Shown piece after piece: positions 3,928 to 29,136 of a DNA stretch of 64,000 bases. A model generated the notes under the pieces. That model was not told the DNA's origin. It did no database searches and worked only from the letters and a program-made list of their open reading frames with translations. Source of the DNA: an uncultured Bacteroidales bacterium (GTDB taxonomy: Bacteria > Bacteroidota > Bacteroidia > Bacteroidales > UBA3663); contig CACXTQ010000004.1 of NCBI GenBank assembly GCA_902770595.1, positions 3,445 to 67,444 of the forward strand, written 5' to 3'. The translations under genes and the position numbers were made by a program. Every line of letters begins with the position of its first letter. The stretch's first letter is position 1.

Positions 3928-5409
3928 TTACAAAGTCTGCCATGCCGACCCATTCCATATTTCAGCATTTCCCGTAGAAATGTTGAAATAAACAAAACCA
4001 GCACCGACATAGTTACCCAAGCCCGAAGGCCGATTGGCTGTTGTTCCTCGTTTAATCCAATCGTATTCAACCAATATATCAGTAAAACAACCAGTTGCAT
4101 TGTAAGCTGTAATCAACTGATCAGAAAGAATCTGTTTGACTTCGGTGTGGCCCGAAATAGTTTTGTCTCTATCATAGCCTCTGTAATACACATTATGTAA
4201 ACGGACAGTATTCTTAGACCCATTTGAACAATTAATCTTTATCAGATTGCTCTCATTAAACCATCCGTTATTAGTAGTCCAACCTGTACAAACCCAATTT
4301 GAGATGTATAAACCATCGATTTCGACTTTATCACAGTTTAAGAAGAACAGAATTCTCTTATCATTAACCGAAGTCGTCATAAAAGGCATATTAAACCAAC
4401 AATTTTTAACAGTCATATTTGTACCGCCATCAAAATATATACCTTTTGCGGCCTCTTCTCCTGCACAATTAATCAATGAAAGGGAATTACACCACTTGAT
4501 ATAATAGATGTACCAATTACTACCACCATCAGTAACAGAACTATCTGGTTTCCAAGTGTCAGCACAACAATTCATTAAAGTGGAATAGGTCAAAGTTTCA
4601 AGGTAATAAGCATTCTGCTTGTAACTCTTTACGAAACAGTTAGCCATCGTAACCGAAGTTCCACCTTTGATCGAAAAACCTGTAAAAACGCCAGTCGCAG
4701 TACAACGCTCAATCTTAGACAGGAATGTATCCAAATAATAGCCAATGGAGCAACCTGTTGAAGCCAATCCCTCCAACACAAGTCTATAATGCTGCCCGTT
4801 TGTTGAGAATCCATAATCCATTACATTCTCTGTTCCATTCTTTACAGAAAAATTCCTAATAGTGACGAAATCACTCGCAATACTAACAATAGTATTCATT
4901 GTGGTATTTGTCGGACTTGCCAACAATTGAGGTTTGCCTGAATGATCATTAGATTGACGCGTTCCTTCGAACACCTTTCTGCTTGAGATAGAAAGAGTTG
5001 ATTTAATCAGGTACGTTTTATTCAACAAGATGACTCTCTCAATAGGAGAAGACAAAGCTTTTTGAATAGCAGTAGTATCATTCGTAGAACCATTGCCTAC
5101 TGCACCCCACCATTCAGCATAGCAACTGTCCACATTCCATGTGCCTGCTAAAGTAACGCCACTAAAGATTTGCCTTGGTGGTGATACTATAGTAGATCTA
5201 TTTCCTGTCAAAGTGTAGTTGCCAATGATTTTTCCCCCTTCGAAGATTATCATTGTGTTGGATGCCATAGTGACATTAGCGGTGAGCGTAATGTCAGAGT
5301 CAAGGTGATAGACACCACCCGATTGCTGAACTGCAGACAAAAAGTCTGCCAAAGTGCTTCTAACCTGTTCACTAACAAGCTGAGCAACCTCATTTGTGTT
5401 TTGTTCCAT
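3928..5409 (-). CDS. Right-handed beta-helix protein, pectate-lyase-3/tailspike-like, no signal peptide
   Basis: AEWWGAVGNGSTNDTTAIQKAL is the typical opening of the pectate_lyase_3 / phage tailspike fold. The C-terminus GTTANRP...YFNISTGNAEIWNGSAWQ resembles phage tail-fibre tips. The region is AT-rich. Confidence 0.6.
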   Translation of the reverse strand: MEQNTNEVAQLVSEQVRSTLADFLSAVQQSGGVYHLDSDITLTANVTMASNTMIIFEGGKIIGNYTLTGNRSTIVSPPRQIFSGVTLAGTWNVDSCYAEWWGAVGNGSTNDTTAIQKALSSPIERVILLNKTYLIKSTLSISSRKVFEGTRQSNDHSGKPQLLASPTNTTMNTIVSIASDFVTIRNFSVKNGTENVMDYGFSTNGQHYRLVLEGLASTGCSIGYYLDTFLSKIERCTATGVFTGFSIKGGTSVTMANCFVKSYKQNAYYLETLTYSTLMNCCADTWKPDSSVTDGGSNWYIYYIKWCNSLSLINCAGEEAAKGIYFDGGTNMTVKNCWFNMPFMTTSVNDKRILFFLNCDKVEIDGLYISNWVCTGWTTNNGWFNESNLIKINCSNGSKNTVRLHNVYYRGYDRDKTISGHTEVKQILSDQLITAYNATGCFTDILVEYDWIKRGTTANRPSGLGNYVGAGFVYFNISTGNAEIWNGSAWQTL

Positions 5410-5440
5410 AGTTATATATTTTTTGTTAAAAGTATTCAGT

Positions 5441-7840
5441 TCACCAAGGAACTGTAAGAATTTTCTTGCCTTTGTGAATCATTACCTGTCCCTCAGCAGG
5501 ATGCTGGAGTCGATGACCGAACAAGTCATAGAAGGAAGCATCATCGCAATCCTCAACAACGGCCTCCTCTATGCCAGCTCCAGGAGCAACTACAGGCAAA
5601 AGGGTCAGCGAGACGATATTGTTGCCCAGCAGATCCGGTCGTAAGGACATTTCGGGCTGATGAAAGGTGCGAGTCTCAAAGCCTCCATTGGAGTAACCGA
5701 CTACCAGCTGCCAATGGAAATTACTGCTGCCACTATTCACACGGAAAGCCCTTCCACTGAAACAATATCCATCGAAATTGCCCTCTGTCAAACCGATGTC
5801 GTTCACTCTTACCGGCACATTGTAAACCGAGCCATCATGATATGCCATCGTAGAGACCGTAAGCGGGATAACATTCCCCAAATTGAATCGCGAAGCAAGC
5901 TGCTGGCTCTGGATCAGCGGGCGCTGCCGACAGAATGGGATAAGCCGATTCTCGATACGATTGGCAAAATCCTGATAGGTGGCACCTTCGTTCATGAAGG
6001 CGAATGTCGCTTCGATCTCACCATCAATCGCTGCACGCATTTTGTTAATCATTGCAACTGTGACCGAGGGTTTGCAGAAATCCCCCAGATAGACCATCAT
6101 GCGGTCGATGAACGGGTTGCGGAACTCCGGCATATCGAACAGCCGCGCAAAAATGCGTCGGTGTTCGGGCTTTTCATCGTAATTGCTCTCACTTCCCGTC
6201 ATTGTGATGAAATTAAGCCAGTTCCAGTTGTCTCCTCCTCCGGCAAGATCGTCAAGGTCCTTCAGCAGAGGACGGAAAACCTTCTGGGTTTCGCTTCTGT
6301 CGTACCACAGATAGACGTTGGTATGAGCAAAGGTGCGATTGGAGGAATATGCCTCGCAGCAAAGATAATTGAGAAGCAGCGACATGTCGAAGTATCGGGC
6401 GAAGTCTTCATATCTGGAATACGGGTCATCTATCAGCTGACGAACATCGTCGTAGTCTGCCACACTGCTATAAAAAGCTTCGACTTCCGAAATGGAATCT
6501 TCCTCCAGACCCAGATTGTTCGATGCCCAAGTATTGTTGGCACGCTCACGAATGTCCATGATTCCATTGTACTTGCCGTCGATATAGACAATGCACGGCC
6601 GATAGTCGAGATACTGCAAGCTGTCGATATGATTGGCAAAAAGCAACTGTACAAAGGCGTCGTCAATACGTGAGTCGAGGCAGCGCGTGCCACTATTGCG
6701 AAGACAGAAAGTCTTGGTCTTCTTGACGAATGGCTTATGCGGGAAGAATGTCGAAGATTTGAAGCGTTTCTTCTGCCAACGCTTGTTGGTATAAAGGTTC
6801 ATCGCCTTCTGATTTCTTCGCAACGACCCTGCACCATGCATGCCCGCCTCGCCTATCTGATTGATGAGTGCCGTGTCAGGCTCCGATTGTTCGAAGAACT
6901 CGATGTTGAACGGGCGGCGCCAACCCTTGAAGCAATTGCCATCAAAATCATCGCCCACCATCATGCCTATCTCCTCGTCGTAAAGGTATCTGCTGTCGGT
7001 CGATAGCGAGAACACCGGCAGTTGCGTCGTGCGTGGATGGAAGATGTAGGAATGCGTAACAGGCAGGGAAGTCAGTGCGAAGTCAGAAATCAACCGGGCA
7101 CGGACCACCGTTGTTTTCGTTATCTGTATCCTACACGGTTCATCCTTGGCATAGCTTGCTGACACTTTGGTAGGAGCCGAGCCATCGAGGGTGACATACA
7201 GGCGCGTGTCGGAAGGAAGAGCGGCATCAGGAAACGCAATCGATAGTAAGAATGACTCGCCCACCGTGAGCAGTCGCCCTGCATGACTGAATATCGGATT
7301 AGGCAAGAGAAAGTCTGAGCCACGGCTTTCGTTCGGTTCGCCAGGCGTTGGCGTGACTTCAAATTGCCATTCGTCAGCCCCATCAGCCACTCGGCCCCAA
7401 GCGATATTGGGGGCAGGCATCTCTTCGTATGCCACACTATCGATCAATACGCCGTCCGCATTCCAAAGATAGAGGGCTCCCGCCTTGGTAGATTCTAACC
7501 GGAAGTCAGTGTGTTCCCATCCGTCATCCTTCTTGTCGCAATAGAAGAGGATATGCCCACCTGCAGGGAGTTCGCGAGTATGGTACAGTTTGTAAGCTTT
7601 GGCATAGTCGCTACTGGTGCCAATGCTCCAGCCTTTCATGTTGATTTTCTTTCCTGTAGTGTTATAGACTTCGAACCAGGAGTCGGGGAAATCCTTTCGA
7701 TAGAATAAGGCATCGATGTTGCTCTGCATCAGTTCGTTGATAATCACTTGATGCGTCTGGGCGACAAGAGATCCACCTGAACTGACGAGTAGCATCAGAC
7801 ATGCGACAATCAGACTTCTTTGAAATAATGCTCTTTCCAT
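5441..7840 (-). CDS. Secreted CotH kinase family protein with N-terminal lamin-tail domain (LTD) and T9SS CTD-like tail
   Basis: Signal peptide, then VIINELMQSN...WFEVYN (LTD), then a central CotH-like region (CLRNSGTRCLDSRIDDAF...). The C-terminus is FYDLFGHRL...GKKILTVPW. Confidence 0.75.
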   Translation of the reverse strand: MERALFQRSLIVACLMLLVSSGGSLVAQTHQVIINELMQSNIDALFYRKDFPDSWFEVYNTTGKKINMKGWSIGTSSDYAKAYKLYHTRELPAGGHILFYCDKKDDGWEHTDFRLESTKAGALYLWNADGVLIDSVAYEEMPAPNIAWGRVADGADEWQFEVTPTPGEPNESRGSDFLLPNPIFSHAGRLLTVGESFLLSIAFPDAALPSDTRLYVTLDGSAPTKVSASYAKDEPCRIQITKTTVVRARLISDFALTSLPVTHSYIFHPRTTQLPVFSLSTDSRYLYDEEIGMMVGDDFDGNCFKGWRRPFNIEFFEQSEPDTALINQIGEAGMHGAGSLRRNQKAMNLYTNKRWQKKRFKSSTFFPHKPFVKKTKTFCLRNSGTRCLDSRIDDAFVQLLFANHIDSLQYLDYRPCIVYIDGKYNGIMDIRERANNTWASNNLGLEEDSISEVEAFYSSVADYDDVRQLIDDPYSRYEDFARYFDMSLLLNYLCCEAYSSNRTFAHTNVYLWYDRSETQKVFRPLLKDLDDLAGGGDNWNWLNFITMTGSESNYDEKPEHRRIFARLFDMPEFRNPFIDRMMVYLGDFCKPSVTVAMINKMRAAIDGEIEATFAFMNEGATYQDFANRIENRLIPFCRQRPLIQSQQLASRFNLGNVIPLTVSTMAYHDGSVYNVPVRVNDIGLTEGNFDGYCFSGRAFRVNSGSSNFHWQLVVGYSNGGFETRTFHQPEMSLRPDLLGNNIVSLTLLPVVAPGAGIEEAVVEDCDDASFYDLFGHRLQHPAEGQVMIHKGKKILTVPW

Positions 7841-23228: not shown

Positions 23229-23461
23229 TGTCTCGTGTCACTTTTACGCATTATGAATAATTCGTCGATTAATCCAAAGAAATGGGATATATGACGAATT
23301 ATCACACATTTATTTGAAAGTTTACTTATATTTGCATATATCTATGTAAAAATGACGCAATAAACAAGGGTGTAAGATAGCAAAATTGAAGATTTATGGG
23401 GAAAAGAAACATTTTTTTGAAAAAAGTTACGATATAGTTTGGAGGATGAAGATATTTTTCC

Positions 23462-23469
23462 TATCTTTG
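23462..23469 (+). promoter_or_regulatory. -7 promoter box (TATCTTTG)
   Basis: TAnnTTTG match 27 nt upstream of the ATG at 23497. Confidence 0.55.
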
Positions 23470-23496
23470 CAGTGCAATTCGACAAACTTTAGCGAT

Positions 23497-24300
23497 ATGA
23501 AGAGAGAGTATTTTGAAATCATGAACACGGAAGAGGAGAAATTGACTCGTTCGAAAATGTTGGAACTTTTGACGAAGCGTTACGGAATTCCGGAATTCGA
23601 CGCCAAAGACATTCTGCAAGACGCCTGGCTTGTCCTTCTGGAAAAGCTGATGGTTGGAACACTTTCCGAGAAGCCGAAGAATCTGCTGGCTTACATGACG
23701 AGCATTTGCATCAACAAAGCTCACGAGTACCTCCGCAAGCGGACGTACGAGAACCTGGAGACTTCGCTCGACGACGAAAGTATCCTGCCCGAAAGGCTTG
23801 ACTTGATTCAAAAGGAGATTCAATCGTGGATTGACTTCATCGAAGAGAGCGAAAAGGCACAGCAACGCAAGATGGAAGCCATCGAACAAGCCATCCGAAC
23901 GCTCAACCCTCGTCAACGAGCCTTGCTCGAAGGGTACTACTACGACAAAAGAACGATGAGGGAGCTGGCACAACAACTGGGCTACAGCAACGAGGACGTA
24001 GCCAAGAGCACCAAGAACCGAATCATCAAAACGATTCGCGAAACAATCAAAAAGCAGGAGAGAGCCAATCAAAGCAGGCTCTCCCCTGCTGCCTTTTTAA
24101 AGGTCATAGTTCGTGATGCCCAGGATCTGCCAGAAGTCGGCAGGAAGGGTCACATTCTCGAGCATAATGCAGTCGCGGAACAGCGGGGCAATCGTCGAAG
24201 GTGTATAGCCAGCAATGCCACAACCGATACGCGTCACGAGGAAGCGCATTTCGGGATGTTCGGCAGCGAACTTCGCAAACCGCTCCACAGCGCCAGTTAA
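23497..24300 (+). CDS. Sigma-70 family (ECF-like) RNA polymerase sigma factor with an unusual C-terminal read-on
   Basis: Region-2-like DILQDAWLVLLEKL and region-4-like LNPRQRALLEGYYYDKRTMRELAQQLGYSNEDVAKSTKNRI. The first in-frame stop is at 24300, 204 bp inside the convergent gene. Confidence 0.65.
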   Translation: MKREYFEIMNTEEEKLTRSKMLELLTKRYGIPEFDAKDILQDAWLVLLEKLMVGTLSEKPKNLLAYMTSICINKAHEYLRKRTYENLETSLDDESILPERLDLIQKEIQSWIDFIEESEKAQQRKMEAIEQAIRTLNPRQRALLEGYYYDKRTMRELAQQLGYSNEDVAKSTKNRIIKTIRETIKKQERANQSRLSPAAFLKVIVRDAQDLPEVGRKGHILEHNAVAEQRGNRRRCIASNATTDTRHEEAHFGMFGSELRKPLHSAS

Positions 24301-25170
24301 GCTCGCTATGCCTTCCATCGTCGGGATGGCATAGCTCTGGCCCTGCAGACCTTCTCCCTGTCCCCAGATGGCGCCGAAATGATGCATTGCCGCTGCAGCC
24401 GCACCACCTGCGTGATATCCTCGGATGTTGCTGCCGAAGACAAAGATCTCACCGGCATTAAGTGTACAGATGTTGTCGGGAGTCACCCTTGGACCATAGT
24501 ATTCGCGTGCAAACTGACGCTTTTGCTCCCTCATCTCCATTGCTGAAAGTGATGCCTCGTGACCATACATATCGTTCATCTTACGATAATAGGCTCTCTT
24601 CGAAGAACGCTCACGAAGCCAAGTGTTATGCGTACCACGTTCATCGTGAGCGAATTCCACCACATTGTCGATAGCCAGCAAGTCGGTCACTTCCTTCACG
24701 TCGTGTGCCGAACCCATGTAGGAGAATGTCCAGCCTTCGACCTTCAGCTTTTCGATCAGACTGCGAAGGGCTGAGGCAGTCCATTCACTGGATGAATTCT
24801 CCAAACCATCGGTCAGTATTGTTACCACGGCAGCTGCATCGGGATCATCCTTGATGCGGTCGTGCAGGCGTGTCAGCGACTGGCCCATCGCATCGTAGAG
24901 AGGCGTGCCTCCACAAGGCATGTAGTCAGTGAACTCCTTGACCTCTGCGATAGGCTTGTTGTCGATCATCGTTCGTACATAGGGCGTGTTACCCGTGTCG
25001 AAAGTGACGAGCGTCAGCGTATGATCCTGCGTCTCCTTAAATTCCTCCTGCGCACTGCGGATGGTTCCAATCGTTTCGTTGATTCCCGAAAGGGTTGCTT
25101 CCCTCAGGTGTCCCATTGATCCACTCTCATCAACGATAATCAAGTTGTAAATATGTGCTTTTTTCTCCAT
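24097..25170 (-). CDS. vWA (MIDAS) domain fused to a C-terminal macro-like / A1S_2505-like domain
   Basis: N-terminal VDESGSM...GGTPLYDA...ILTDGLEN (MIDAS DxSxS/T/D). C-terminal FVFGSNIRGYHAGGAAAAA...GQSYAIPT...VTRIGCGIAGY, which I recognise from phage non-structural A1S_2505-like proteins and which mimics macro-domain motifs. Confidence 0.65.
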   Translation of the reverse strand: MEKKAHIYNLIIVDESGSMGHLREATLSGINETIGTIRSAQEEFKETQDHTLTLVTFDTGNTPYVRTMIDNKPIAEVKEFTDYMPCGGTPLYDAMGQSLTRLHDRIKDDPDAAAVVTILTDGLENSSSEWTASALRSLIEKLKVEGWTFSYMGSAHDVKEVTDLLAIDNVVEFAHDERGTHNTWLRERSSKRAYYRKMNDMYGHEASLSAMEMREQKRQFAREYYGPRVTPDNICTLNAGEIFVFGSNIRGYHAGGAAAAAMHHFGAIWGQGEGLQGQSYAIPTMEGIASLTGAVERFAKFAAEHPEMRFLVTRIGCGIAGYTPSTIAPLFRDCIMLENVTLPADFWQILGITNYDL

Positions 25171-25245: not shown

Positions 25246-26088
25246 TCAGAATGTCTTGATGTAATGTCCTTTCTCCTGCAGCCGTCCGATGACCTCAACA
25301 AAACGAGGCGGCAGCTTGTCGAGCGCATCACCGGCAAGGTCAGAGGGGATTTCCTTATAGAAGGCTTCGGCTATGCCGCCCGTGATGCAGGCAAGGGTGT
25401 CGCTGTCGCCACCCAGAGTGACAGCCAGTCGAATGGCATCCTCGTAGTCTCGACTGTCGAGGAAAGCGACGATTGCTTCGGGTACCGTGCCCTGGCAACT
25501 GCCATTGAAATGGTAAGTCGGACGAATCTCATCACAGGTACGATGCAGGTCGTAGCCATATTTCTCTTCGATGTACTTGCGAATTTCCTCCTTCGTGCTG
25601 CCTGTCCGTGCCATAAAGATGGCTGCCGCCGTGGCTTGTGCTCCCTTGATGCCTTCGGGGTGATTGTGGGTAATGGATGCCGAGATTTCGGCAGCATTCT
25701 CAGTCTGCCAAAGTGTATCGAACATCCAACCTACTGCCGAAACACGCATAGCCGAGCCATTGCCCCAGGAGTTGTAGGGGACTCGTTCGCCGCCTATATA
25801 GAAACCACGATAGTCCTTGAGTTGCTCGGGATAGAAGAGCCAGGTGCGGAAGCCACCACCATATCCTCCCATCGGGCATGGAAATTCGTTGGCAAACTCC
25901 ACCAGTTTCTGTTCCAGAACCGCGTGCGAGAGGTTGGGGTCATCGAGAAGCCACTCGGCAACTGCCACAGTGCAGATGCTGTCGTCAGTGAAATTGCTAA
26001 ACAGGTCGAAGAGCGGGAAGTTGTAGTCATGCGTGTTGCAGAACTCAAATGTTGATCCAGCGATATCGCCTATGATTGCTCCTAACAT
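25246..26088 (-). CDS. ADP-ribosylglycohydrolase family protein
   Basis: The ATG at 26088 gives MLGAIIGDIAGSTFEF. The C-terminus has GGDSDTLACITGGIAEAFY. Both are signature ARH/DraG-family motifs. Confidence 0.8.
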   Translation of the reverse strand: MLGAIIGDIAGSTFEFCNTHDYNFPLFDLFSNFTDDSICTVAVAEWLLDDPNLSHAVLEQKLVEFANEFPCPMGGYGGGFRTWLFYPEQLKDYRGFYIGGERVPYNSWGNGSAMRVSAVGWMFDTLWQTENAAEISASITHNHPEGIKGAQATAAAIFMARTGSTKEEIRKYIEEKYGYDLHRTCDEIRPTYHFNGSCQGTVPEAIVAFLDSRDYEDAIRLAVTLGGDSDTLACITGGIAEAFYKEIPSDLAGDALDKLPPRFVEVIGRLQEKGHYIKTF

Positions 26089-26167: not shown

Positions 26168-26791
26168 TTACTCCTCAATAGCCTTGACGTAAAAATATTT
26201 CGGATATCGACCGACGACGAAGAGCGTCACTGGGCAAAGCCAAAGGGTGCGAGGCATCGATTCTCCAGTCAGTGGGTGTTTGCGCATGAACTGTTCAGCC
26301 TTGTTTCCTCGAACCGTATAAGTGGCACCTCCTGTCAACGAAGACTGAGTCTGAGACAATTCGTGCCAACCGTCCTGCATAAGCTGCTGGAATTCCACCT
26401 CGTCAAGTTTTTCGGAAGTAGCCTTAGCGATAATCGAGACACGATCCTTACCTTCGCTCAAGAGGTCCAGGAACTTGTCCGCGCCACAAACCATCTCAAG
26501 GTTTCCCTTCTTCCAAGGCCAATTCGGGAAATCAACATACCATCGATATTCCTCTTCGCGATTGAAGGAGAGCTTGTATTCCTCCTTACGACCAGTAATG
26601 GCACTGCCCAAAAGCCTTACCAGCTTCATTACGCTCATTCCGTCCACATCACCATAACCGGACAACTGTTCGGTCACGACATTGCGAATCTCGGAAATCG
26701 AGAGGCTATCGGCTGTCATCTGATCATTGTCACGAACTGTCTTCTTCAAATTTTCAATGTTGCTCATTGTGCTTGCTGTTTGGTTAAACAT
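26168..26791 (-). CDS. Hypothetical protein (207 aa), family not recognised
   Basis: A clean ORF co-directional with the ARH and vWA genes; contains WYVDFPNWPWKKGNLEMVCGADKFLDLL. The start could alternatively be the second Met (26767). Confidence 0.55.
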   Translation of the reverse strand: MFNQTASTMSNIENLKKTVRDNDQMTADSLSISEIRNVVTEQLSGYGDVDGMSVMKLVRLLGSAITGRKEEYKLSFNREEEYRWYVDFPNWPWKKGNLEMVCGADKFLDLLSEGKDRVSIIAKATSEKLDEVEFQQLMQDGWHELSQTQSSLTGGATYTVRGNKAEQFMRKHPLTGESMPRTLWLCPVTLFVVGRYPKYFYVKAIEE

Positions 26792-26955: not shown

Positions 26956-26974
26956 GTGCGTCAAATTGACACAC
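26956..26974. promoter_or_regulatory. 19-bp near-perfect palindrome GTGCGTCAA-A-TTGACACAC (candidate operator)
   Basis: 8 of 9 arm positions pair. It lies between the NrtR-like gene and the downstream three-gene unit. Confidence 0.35.
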
Positions 26975-27049: not shown

Positions 27050-27820
27050 TCAGAAAATCAAGTTCGAGAGTCTGCCGGTGCGCTTGAATTCCTCGTACTT
27101 CTCGAGATTGAGCTGATAGTTGATGTTCCTCGATTCAGTGGGGAATACATCAAGAATGCCACTGTCGAGCATCTTACGAGCAAAATTGCGACGGTCGAAA
27201 TTCTTTTCGAGGATGGCCTCATAGAGTTTCTGGAGCGTCGTCATCGAGAATCGCTTGGGCAGCAGCTTGAAGGCCAAAGGCTCGAAGCACAACTGCTGCT
27301 GGAGGCGAATATGGGCTGCAGTAATGATTTCGTCGTGGTCGAAAGCCAGAAAACGCATACCATCAGGCAGATTCTTGATGGTATTGAGCACCTGATAAAG
27401 TGGAACCCACTTGGCATCGGCCGCATCGTCTCCACCCCGAACAGGTTGGATGGTCACCAAGGCATAATAGGCATCGGTGATGGTAATGCATCGAGGATCT
27501 CGACCTGGAGTACTCCAGGTACCAAGTTCATAGATGTTCTGAACATCAAAACCCGTCTCCTCCTTCAGCTCTCGTTTAGCACATTCAAGGAGACTCTCGT
27601 TCTTCTCCTCGACCACCAGACCATATTGATTGGTCTTGGCCTCAATTTTGATGAAACCACCCGGCAGAGCATAACGACCCTTGAAAGGTTCGATACCTCG
27701 TTCGATGAGCAAAACCTTTAGGAGTTCATCGGTCATATCGAAACCGAAAATGACACAATCGGTGGTGACTGCGGGTCGTGGATAGATATATCCGAAATTA
27801 GGTTTTTCGTGATTCTCCAT
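27050..27820 (-). CDS. nrtR: NrtR-family Nudix-related transcriptional regulator
   Basis: A Nudix core ...ECAKRELKEETGF plus a C-terminal winged-helix segment FSMTTLQKLYEAILEKNFDRRNFARKMLDSGIL, which matches the NrtR C-terminal domain pattern. Confidence 0.75.
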   Translation of the reverse strand: MENHEKPNFGYIYPRPAVTTDCVIFGFDMTDELLKVLLIERGIEPFKGRYALPGGFIKIEAKTNQYGLVVEEKNESLLECAKRELKEETGFDVQNIYELGTWSTPGRDPRCITITDAYYALVTIQPVRGGDDAADAKWVPLYQVLNTIKNLPDGMRFLAFDHDEIITAAHIRLQQQLCFEPLAFKLLPKRFSMTTLQKLYEAILEKNFDRRNFARKMLDSGILDVFPTESRNINYQLNLEKYEEFKRTGRLSNLIF

Positions 27821-27848: not shown

Positions 27849-27924
27849 CGGGATTTCTACGACAAAAACAAGTCTTTGAAGATTTTTCTTACAAAAAATG
27901 CGTAAATTTTACACAAAGGCACTT

Positions 27925-29136
27925 TTATGCAGTCTCTTTCTTCATCTTTGGCAGATAGACGGCGATGATGCCAAGCAAAGGAAGCAGGGCGCTGACCTTG
28001 AAGATGAAGAGGATGCTGGTCTGATCGGCCAACCATCCGAAGAAACTGCTGCCAAGTCCTCCCAGTCCGAACGAAAGTCCATAGAAGATGCCAGCCACCG
28101 TGCCTGTATGATGCGGCATGAGATCGGTGGCATAAACGAGAATGGCCGAGAATGCGGACGCCATGACCATACCAATCACGATGGAGAGACCAATAGTAGC
28201 GACAAAGCCATCGAGATAAGGAAGAAGCAATGTGAATGGTGCTGCCCCAAATATCGAGAACCATATCACATACTTTCGACCATACTTGTCACCAATCCAT
28301 CCTCCCACGATGGTTCCAACGACCTGAGAGGCAAGGAAGGCGAAGAGACAGACTTGTGCATTGGCCACCGTAATGTGGAACTTGTCGATGAGGAAAAATG
28401 TGAAATAATTGGTCATACTCGAAGTATAGAAATTCTTCGAGAACATCAGCATGAATAGGATGAAGATGAAGAAATAGATTCTTCGCCGGCTATATTGTTT
28501 CACCGTAGCCCAATGCTCGACGGCTTTCTTTCGTGCTTCTTTCATCTCCTTCACAAGCCATCGACCAATGTAGCCTAAGATGATGGCAAGAAAGATGGCT
28601 ACGAAGGCGAGCAGGCGAACACCGGCAAGCCCTCTTGGCAATACGATGAGTGCGGCAAGTAATGGACCAATGGAATAACCTCCATTGCCGCCTACCTGGA
28701 AGATGCTTTGCGCCAATCCCTTCCTTCCTCCCGATGCTACCTGTGCCACTTGCGAAGCCTGCGGATGGAAAATGGATGAACCGCATCCCATCAAAACTAC
28801 TGCCATCAGGATCATCTCATAGCTCGTGGCATAAGACAACAGCAGGATGCCTGACAGTGTAAAGAGCATGCTCACCGACAACTGCCAGGAATGGTGGTGT
28901 TTGTCGGCATAAAACCCAACAAACGGTTGCAGGATGGACGATGTGACCTGAAGCACCAAAGTGATGGCTCCAATCTGAGCAAAACTCAGACTGAAGTCCT
29001 CCTTCAGAACAGGAAAGAGTGCAGGAATCATCGACTGCATCGTGTCATTGAGCAAATGACAGAAACTGACGATGAAGAGTATTGTAAAGGCGGTTTGGCC
29101 TGTCCTTCTTGGCTTGGACAATTCCTTTTCGTTCAT
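27925..29136 (-). CDS. MFS transporter, Fsr (fosmidomycin-resistance)-like
   Basis: 403 aa with ~12 TM segments. The N-terminus FCHLLNDTMQSMIPALFPVLKEDFSLSFAQIG is typical of the Fsr subgroup. Confidence 0.75.
   Translation of the reverse strand: MNEKELSKPRRTGQTAFTILFIVSFCHLLNDTMQSMIPALFPVLKEDFSLSFAQIGAITLVLQVTSSILQPFVGFYADKHHHSWQLSVSMLFTLSGILLLSYATSYEMILMAVVLMGCGSSIFHPQASQVAQVASGGRKGLAQSIFQVGGNGGYSIGPLLAALIVLPRGLAGVRLLAFVAIFLAIILGYIGRWLVKEMKEARKKAVEHWATVKQYSRRRIYFFIFILFMLMFSKNFYTSSMTNYFTFFLIDKFHITVANAQVCLFAFLASQVVGTIVGGWIGDKYGRKYVIWFSIFGAAPFTLLLPYLDGFVATIGLSIVIGMVMASAFSAILVYATDLMPHHTGTVAGIFYGLSFGLGGLGSSFFGWLADQTSILFIFKVSALLPLLGIIAVYLPKMKKETA

Follow-up and report, generated by a model that had tools for sequence, protein, structure and literature searches.

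What does a gut or rumen bacterium do with a protein that joins a cytoplasmic von Willebrand factor A (vWA) domain to a domain of the A1S_2505 family? The question is raised by a gene on contig CACXTQ010000004.1 of an uncultured Bacteroidales bacterium (assembly GCA_902770595.1), of which we analysed a stretch of 64,000 nucleotides (hereafter, the window). A single open reading frame (ORF) of 357 codons plus a stop fills positions 24,097-25,170 on the minus strand. A first-pass annotation, made from the letters alone, had described it as an unusual fusion of a vWA module and a macro-like domain, and had proposed that the former could tether an ADP-ribose reader or eraser to a partner or substrate; all the motifs that it quoted are present in this one ORF, the strand of which it had not stated. 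The gene shares a predicted operon with a repressor that senses ADP-ribose and an enzyme that removes it, so that it most likely helps to strip foreign ADP-ribose tags from components of the cell. The reading that we favour, with a probability of roughly 55%, is that of an eraser module induced by ADP-ribose, in which the vWA domain would hold a target or partner and the macro-like domain would bind, and probably cleave, an ADP-ribose linkage, complementing the ADP-ribosylglycohydrolase (ARH, also called ARG) encoded next to it.

The gene is real, as thousands of homologues exist and the top 120 are full length. Our word-indexed search returned 5,621 significant proteins matching either half, not necessarily both; the best 120 of those align to 98-100% of the query, with identities of at least 72%, and none has an informative name. 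The N-terminal half contains the elements of a metal-ion-dependent adhesion site (MIDAS), namely DESGSM (residues 13-19), TPLYDA (residues 89-94) and TDGLEN (residues 120-125). The site is complete, as first described: its five residues D14, S16, S18, T89 and D121 are invariant in 27 of 27 full-length fused homologues, down to 38% identity, and are also kept in the stand-alone vWA relatives aligned with them. The Pfam model VWA_2 gave 19.7 bits on this half, under its cut-off of 27. Foldseek recognised the fold with a best E-value of about 1e-6 and probability 1.00 (295 matches at E<=1e-3), and among the matches listed for this half, all of them vWA or I domains, were TFIIH p44, Plasmodium TRAP, ANTXR (the anthrax-toxin receptors), integrin I domains and complement C2a. 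The vWA assignment is weak by Pfam but firm by the predicted fold. PHROGs splits the protein between two independent phage families, phrog_7371 covering residues 4-202 (E 1.4e-36) and phrog_2072 covering residues 234-351 (E 7e-34).

The AlphaFold2 (AF2) model of the whole protein, built from a 61-row alignment, has a predicted local distance difference test (pLDDT) of 95.9 and a predicted template modelling score (pTM) of 0.91, and a pTM as high as this suggests that both domains are held in a fixed position relative to each other. The basic linker noted earlier between them is a basic helical stretch (residues ~177-224) with helices at residues 177-203 and 210-222 according to DSSP; it also forms the C-terminal tail of stand-alone vWA homologues in the alignment, and, to judge from the model, this two-helix connector probably joins both domains rigidly. 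We did not find an N-terminal hydrophobic segment or a signal peptide in the 357 residues, strand beta-1 of which begins at residue 5, consistent with the cytoplasmic location proposed before. The protein shares its fold, the complete DxSxS...T...D motif and the lack of a signal peptide with other cytoplasmic MIDAS vWA proteins (TFIIH p44/Ssl1, archaeal ArnB and the PHROG 7371 proteins); unlike those, it falls under the Pfam VWA_2 cut-off and has a conserved two-helix tail that leads into the macro-like domain.

The C-terminal third carries the motifs FVFGSN, GYHAGGAA, QSYAIPT and RIGCGIAGY within residues 243-322. Its likeness to A1S_2505 proteins, pointed out in the first-pass annotation, is borne out by the NCBIfam model NF049995 ("A1S_2505 family phage non-structural protein"), which matches residues 242-346 over profile positions 1-109 of 109 (138.3 bits, cut-off 45; E 1.1e-40). 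Folded alone with AF2, the domain reached a pLDDT of 93.4. With this predicted model as the query, VIA-align compared 48,161 chains, and the 27 best were all macro domains (Z 12.1-8.3), superposed with a root-mean-square deviation of 2.7-3.4 Å across 116-132 of the 133 residues. They include alphavirus nsP3 (Z 12.1), CHIKV (11.7), M. tuberculosis DarG (10.8), Oceanobacillus MacroD (10.6) and TARG1 (8.9), as well as PARP9/PARP14, Af1521, coronavirus X domains, MACROD2 and Poa1p; PARG, ThsA-type and aminopeptidase N-domains rank below the macro domains. The top Foldseek matches are also macro domains, with probabilities of 0.96-1.00 and E-values of only 5e-3 to 0.1. A SLOG/LOG fold, considered beside the macro fold from the start, was absent from these top matches.

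At the level of sequence profiles, hhalign aligned the family co-linearly with 11 Pfam-Macro (PF01661) proteins taken from related genomes (109 columns, P 0.0019, probability 14%), pairing GSN with AAN, HAGGAA with GGGGVD and IGCGIAGY with ISTGVYRF. These are the same columns in which a parallel to the macro motifs N...GGG and ISTG.YG had been noticed by eye. The core-strand Asn, the Gly-rich loop and the second G-x-G loop of macro type show little or no variation among 26-45 members of the family. The only direct macro match by phmmer was Streptomyces SCO6735 (PDB 5e3b; E 0.13), in an alignment that spans the RIGCG loop only. We conclude, mainly from predicted structures, that the A1S_2505 domain belongs to the macro domains, among which it is both compact and divergent. 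The phage proteins of the family (NF049995, PHROG 2072), such as Bbp37 of Bordetella phage BPP-1, are small and stand-alone, whereas here the domain, with 49-51% identity to the Bbp37 type, is chromosomal, fused to a vWA domain and placed under an NrtR-type regulator. No gene with a canonical Pfam Macro domain was found in this genome, which is 84% complete, and of 18 genomes sampled from the genus only 2 carry such a gene; this genome may have no macro-like domain other than that of the A1S type.

The fusion had been taken for unusual, which it is not. Using an exhaustive search and 50%-identity representatives, we found the vWA-to-A1S order in about 30 clusters, down to 39% identity. The fused form occurs at 16 loci in species-representative genomes other than our own, 15 of them metagenome-assembled genomes of rumen or gut Bacteroidales (Prevotella, Sodaliphilus and unclassified members) and one labelled Dialister. 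In the genus itself, 6 of the 38 other species have the fusion, while other members encode both halves separately, once as parts of one cluster in which an ARH fragment separates the two. The fusion is common in rumen and gut Bacteroidales, yet unnamed in databases; the architecture is therefore widespread, as had been allowed for, but it is not annotated with a known function. The split cluster of the same genus (L015; G006:C3:97000-108000, positions 4754-7388, minus strand) consists of an A1S ORF of 131 residues, a C-terminal ARH fragment of 147 residues and a vWA ORF of 267 residues, and the same locus also has a C-terminal RtcB fragment and a gene with BspA-type leucine-rich repeats (LRR). 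The fragments may be pseudogenes or assembly errors.

In the window, the fusion gene is the last of a cluster of four genes on the same strand, in the order NrtR, DUF6717, ARH, fusion. The ARH gene lies 75 bp upstream of the fusion gene; we start it at an ATG at 26,088, the mechanical ORF having its start at a TTG at 26,178. The regulator protein matches NF050029 with 113.8 bits, far below the 400-bit cut-off of that model. Across the 16 fused loci of other genomes, an NrtR gene is directly upstream and co-directional in 13, ARH follows immediately downstream in five, and DUF6717 is adjacent in two; DUF6717 is also found directly upstream of vWA in L020, L054, L066 and L082. No other flanking gene is conserved across the 16 loci. 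Given the linkage to NrtR and the otherwise unconserved flanks, the conserved core is NrtR plus the vWA::macro gene, set at varied places in the chromosome.

A comparable assembly of parts has been described before. Iyer, Burroughs, Anantharaman and Aravind (2022, Viruses 14:1977; PMC9503650) devote section 3.8 of their paper to "ARG-centric" neighbourhoods, in which an ARG occurs without a linked transferase. According to that section, these comprise a Nudix-helix-turn-helix (Nudix-HTH) or WYL repressor, peptide-binding "chaperones" that include vWA, and accessory Macro or NADAR domains; a phosphatase (rhodanese-phosphatase, calcineurin-like, HD or HAD) is present in about 55% of the systems and is not obligatory. 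The authors proposed, as a computational prediction, that the systems sense ADP-ribose and remove virus-made ADP-ribose marks. Our cluster shares with the systems of section 3.8 an ARH without a coupled transferase or sirtuin, a Nudix-HTH repressor (of the NrtR type), a vWA and a Macro domain, a composition that varies between close genomes, and the alternation of Nudix and WYL regulators at vWA loci. It differs from what is described there in that vWA and Macro form one polypeptide and the Macro domain is of the unannotated compact A1S_2505 type; in that the constant part is NrtR with the fusion (13 of 16 loci) and ARH is variable (5 of 16); and in that DUF6717 is added and no phosphatase is seen beside the cluster. 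The hosts here are rumen and gut Bacteroidales, a lineage that the text of the paper does not name. We did not find a statement of vWA and Macro in one protein in the literature that we searched, the figures and supplements of PMC9503650 excepted. Our best reading is that the fusion protein represents the vWA/Macro component of ARG-centric systems in a Bacteroidales variant with fused vWA-Macro. The earlier statement that the fusion is not known to have been characterised still holds, in that our literature search found no experimental work on the vWA::A1S fusion, on DUF6717, or on NrtR, ARH and phage together. The class of neighbourhood with Nudix regulator, ARG, vWA and Macro had already been described computationally.

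In the eraser module that we favour, the Mg2+-loaded MIDAS of the vWA domain would hold a protein partner or substrate, the vWA domain thereby providing target recognition, and the divergent A1S_2505 macro domain would bind the ADP-ribose moiety and probably hydrolyse the ADP-ribose conjugate. NrtR would repress the module, composed of NrtR itself and the unit DUF6717-ARH-vWA::macro, and free ADP-ribose would induce it. ARH and the macro domain would then take ADP-ribose marks of different linkage off host macromolecules, marks that a phage or an interbacterial toxin may have set by means of a foreign transferase. Evidence beyond that used in the first-pass annotation strengthens its idea of a tethered reader or eraser, namely the operon with NrtR, the neighbouring ARH gene and the further A1S fusions described below, and ADP-ribose binding is a prediction that follows from this idea.

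Several observations weigh against this reading. The partner of the vWA domain is putative. No Pfam model, Macro (PF01661) included, matches residues 225-357 at E<0.01, and the A1S profile gave chance matches only, and no macro domain, against the PDB sequences; with these searches empty, macro homology rests on the predicted fold and on the weak profile match. In the hhalign alignment, the catalytic Asp and His of MacroD (segment GGG-V-D-G-A-I-H) are replaced by Ala and Met in the A1S family. The hydrolases of the TARG1 and DarG type have a catalytic Lys after the central strand (TARG1 K84, DarG K80) and an Asp after the RIGCG loop (TARG1 D125), places that would presumably be taken by Thr284 and Ala320; if this is right, no known catalytic constellation is kept in the A1S domain. 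The literature search yielded no experimental study on any member of the A1S_2505 family, and PADLOC had no match for the fusion, ARH or DUF6717. ARH adjoins the fusion in only the five loci mentioned, and none of the phosphatases of ARG-centric systems was found by Pfam in the cluster of the window; nor did a phosphatase recur in the 16 fused loci, as judged by clustering, with annotation covering the conserved clusters. In favour of the reading, we saw no gene near the cluster for an enzyme that would write the marks, be it an ADP-ribosyltransferase (ART) or a sirtuin, and the DarT, SIR2, ART and ADPrib_exo_Tox models had no match in the genome; these searches are weak, because 84% of the genome is covered and, among the controls, that for SIR2 alone worked. 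A predicted complex of the Mg-loaded fusion protein with DUF6717 (27-row and 32-row alignments; score 0.01, mark 0.32) is used neither way.

The loss of the MacroD-type catalytic residues would also suit a different explanation, in which the A1S macro domain is non-catalytic and binds ADP-ribosylated proteins or free ADP-ribose, either recruiting ARH or another enzyme or sequestering its ligand. Many macro domains are pure readers, for instance macroH2A1.1, macro domains 2 and 3 of PARP14, and PARP9, and several such readers are among the fold matches. The frequent fusion of A1S to true hydrolases (ARH and PARG) fits a targeting module, and proteins with tandem A1S-A1S copies occur. Set against this is the residue pattern of the domain. 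The polar set S247, N248, H253, Y280, T284, T313, C317 and N339 is conserved across all A1S architectures, which hints at catalysis, and S247, N248, H253, Y280, T284, C317 and N339 are near-invariant, more than binding usually needs. Moreover, 11 of the 16 fused loci have no ARH gene within 6 kb, so that the fusion protein must often act without an adjacent hydrolase. We consider a reader or scaffold unlikely, but it is the alternative that survives best.

Comparison with macro domains of both kinds shows where the A1S type stands. The MacroD-type domains (Af1521, YmdB, MacroD1/2 and alphavirus nsP3) gave the best Z scores (11.7-12.1), with the Asn and the Gly-rich loop aligned; relative to them, the A1S domain is ~25-50 residues shorter, is not matched by Pfam Macro and has Ala and Met for the catalytic Asp and His. 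The ALC1-like group of TARG1/C6orf130, DarG and SCO6735 (PDB 4j5s, 5m3i and 5e3b) has a small macro fold (Z 8.9-10.8) and a second loop of the RIGCG type, and in it DarG and TARG1 are erasers of DNA- and protein-linked ADP-ribose. Identity to this group is 9-17%, and the A1S domain is shorter (~130 residues) and has a Ser-Asn, His, Tyr and Cys set of its own.

We also examined the fusion partners in 45 multi-domain A1S representatives, by Pfam and phmmer scans. The partners were ARH (7 clusters), microbial-type PARG (2), NUDIX/NrtR-like domains (2), DUF1810 (2), BspA-type LRR (2), regions resembling sigma factors of the extracytoplasmic function (ECF) type (2-3), DUF6717, HIRAN and OGFr_N, besides tandem copies of A1S itself. 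One representative, P0121, is a triple fusion DUF6717-vWA-A1S, and another, P0161, joins DUF6717 to A1S. Counting the vWA, ARH, DUF6717 and NUDIX/NrtR-like partners, every gene of the operon is fused to A1S somewhere. Three representatives (P0139, P0148 and P0157) have the reverse order, A1S followed by vWA, and the two domains were therefore fused at least twice. A maximum-likelihood tree of 102 A1S domains (132 columns, quick search) left 57 of 99 forks open and favours neither a single origin nor several for the vWA-to-A1S order; the sole argument for more than one fusion event is the reversed order. In five genomes we observed a protein in which a helix-turn-helix resembling sigma-70 region 4 is fused to A1S (374 residues; L079:5320-6444, plus strand; also L058, L071, L087 and L093), its gene lying next to a divergently or separately encoded stand-alone vWA gene. 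In such a protein, the macro domain may be brought to RNA polymerase or DNA.

The regulation of the cluster bears on a further explanation, that of a housekeeping role. A pattern search with the 17-bp palindrome TGYGTNAANTTNACRCA found two sites in the window, against 0.04 expected, one upstream of the DUF6717-ARH-fusion unit and one upstream of the NrtR gene. These two are the only perfect sites in the whole 3.6-Mb genome, where one further site has one mismatch. At 9 other loci, closely similar palindromes precede either NrtR or the fusion gene. The third operator-like site (on C58), upstream of an unrelated exported repeat protein, was set aside as probably due to chance, since a control pattern also matches once. 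No candidate operator was found before NAD genes elsewhere in the genome. This comparative evidence speaks for a local, dedicated regulon, in which NrtR would bind the palindromes, and not for a global NAD regulon.

NrtR regulators are reported to control NAD salvage in the classical case (Rodionov et al. 2008), and the cluster could be part of an NrtR regulon for the recycling or detoxification of small ADP-ribose metabolites (O-acetyl-ADP-ribose, free ADP-ribose, or the ADP-ribose-1''-phosphate of RNA repair), with no role in conflict. A transporter gene of the major facilitator superfamily (MFS) just upstream would suit this, as would the ADP-ribose-1''-phosphatase activity of some macro domains (Poa1p is among the fold matches) and the links of an RNA-repair type, that is, the RtcB fragment by the split A1S/ARH/vWA cluster and the one fusion to OGFr_N. 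However, the cluster contains no gene of NAD salvage or synthesis, and its candidate operator precedes no NAD gene. The spread is patchy even among the species of one genus (6 of 38), and the flanking genes vary from one genome to another; it is not obvious what a vWA domain that binds proteins would do with small metabolites, and all four proteins have relatives in phage families of PHROGs. We judge such a housekeeping role quite improbable.

In BFVD, an A1S-like fold is found in segments of giant proteins of crAss-like phages (A0A7M1RUN7 of cr50_1 and A0A7M1RZQ7 of cr116_1; E 2e-11 and 7.5e-9, 27-34% identity), and one of these polyvalent proteins is named ART-PolyVal-like, i.e., it bears an ADP-ribosyltransferase domain. 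As a lead from predicted structures, this match would mean that phages of this order of hosts carry the A1S fold in the company of an ADP-ribosyltransferase. In a bolder version of the eraser module, A1S_2505 would constitute a new class of catalytic macro-hydrolase (Ser-Asn/His/Tyr/Cys), docked by the vWA domain on a host target, and the NrtR-inducible module would provide eraser immunity against the transferases of crAss-like phages (ART-PolyVal) or of interbacterial toxins; taken as a whole, this version is speculative and rather unlikely. That the cassette is instead derived from or serves a phage, as a moron or counter-defence unit that reverses ADP-ribosylating or NAD-based immunity of the host and was left in the chromosome, is very improbable: both halves, ARH and DUF6717 match PHROG families, the stand-alone halves are frequent in phage genomes (540 records) and A1S-like domains occur in the crAss-like polyvalent proteins, but the fused form, at 80% coverage of the query or more, is in none of the 540 records, no integrase, structural or replication genes surround the cluster, whose neighbours are ordinary chromosomal genes (acyl-CoA synthetase-like, LytTR, sigma factor, MFS and surface protease-like), and the dedicated repressor with its operators fits a host-regulated unit.

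Table 1. Positions in the window of the fusion gene, its parts and the associated elements.
Feature	Position	Strand	Evidence
Whole vWA::A1S_2505 (macro-like) gene	24097..25170	minus	ORF, full-length homologues, AF2 model
vWA core, residues 1-176, with MIDAS D14, S16, S18, T89, D121	24643..25170	minus	Foldseek, PHROG 7371, conservation
DxSxS part of the MIDAS, codons 14-18	25117..25131	minus	sequence and invariant columns
Basic two-helix connector, residues 177-224	24499..24642	minus	DSSP helices, alignment to stand-alone vWA
A1S_2505-family domain, residues 225-357, predicted compact macro fold	24100..24498	minus	NF049995, AF2, VIA-align, Foldseek, hhalign
ADP-ribosylglycohydrolase (ARH/ARG) gene	25246..26088	minus	PF03747 E 1.2e-33, PHROG 6572
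DUF6717 gene, first of the predicted DUF6717-ARH-fusion unit	26168..26791	minus	PF20475 E 1.4e-20
17-bp palindrome, candidate NrtR operator upstream of DUF6717-ARH-fusion	26957..26973	no strand	pattern search
NrtR-family Nudix and winged-helix regulator gene	27050..27820	minus	NrtR_WHD and NUDIX (Pfam)
17-bp palindrome, second copy, upstream of NrtR; candidate site of autoregulation	27899..27915	no strand	pattern search

Among the genes around the fusion, DUF6717 is strikingly conserved, with the motifs WPW, MV.GAD, SLTGG and R..WLCPVTLF, the last with an invariant Cys, and this set suggests an enzyme or a ligand pocket; the ESM Atlas returned nothing for DUF6717. The MFS transporter gene (27,925-29,136, minus strand) ends 10 bp short of the second palindrome and 104 bp short of the start of NrtR. 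Its synteny is kept in at least one genome of the same genus (L017), and no homologue was detected among the 80 loci of other genomes. On the other side, an ECF-like sigma-factor ORF (23,386-24,300, plus strand) converges on the fusion gene and overlaps it at 24,097-24,300. As it meets no stop until 24,300, the conserved 3' end of the fusion gene is read in antisense over ~68 of its codons; in L017, too, a long ORF on the opposite strand overlaps the fusion gene at its 3' end. The sigma factor was considered as a relative of the fusions of sigma-70 region 4 to A1S, and was rejected (E 1.9).

Stand-alone vWA relatives are flanked by NrtR in ~10 loci or by a WYL-WCX regulator in six (L070:820-1731, plus strand, directly downstream of vWA; L027, L053, L069, L097 and L098); NrtR was undetected in the latter, except in L027, which has both regulators. 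A protein of ~375 residues without a Pfam match recurs near stand-alone vWA genes in 14 genomes, for example directly downstream in L051 (6788-7915, plus strand). Our own genome has a second vWA paralogue, which stands alone (G000:C78:9859-10446; L019:4764-5447, minus strand), with 41% identity to residues 3-202, and adjoins a gene for a dynamin-family GTPase (680 residues) and an unannotated gene of 374 residues. The latter was compared with the recurrent 375-residue neighbour, and is unrelated to it.

ADP-ribosylation is a main currency of conflict between phage and host and between bacteria, and host systems that erase its marks have so far been only predicted. The module described here consists of just three genes with a repressor and two operators, and it is widespread in abundant gut and rumen Bacteroidales. 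If the bolder version held, the host systems against ADP-ribosylation that were predicted in 2022 would have in it their first example open to experiment. It gives testable roles to orphan families, namely A1S_2505 (unannotated in Pfam), DUF6717 and a subfamily of cytoplasmic vWA proteins. Should the macro-like domain be active, the ADP-ribosyl hydrolases would gain a class whose active-site residues form a new set; should it only read the marks, the fusion of vWA and macro domains still suggests how such systems find their targets.

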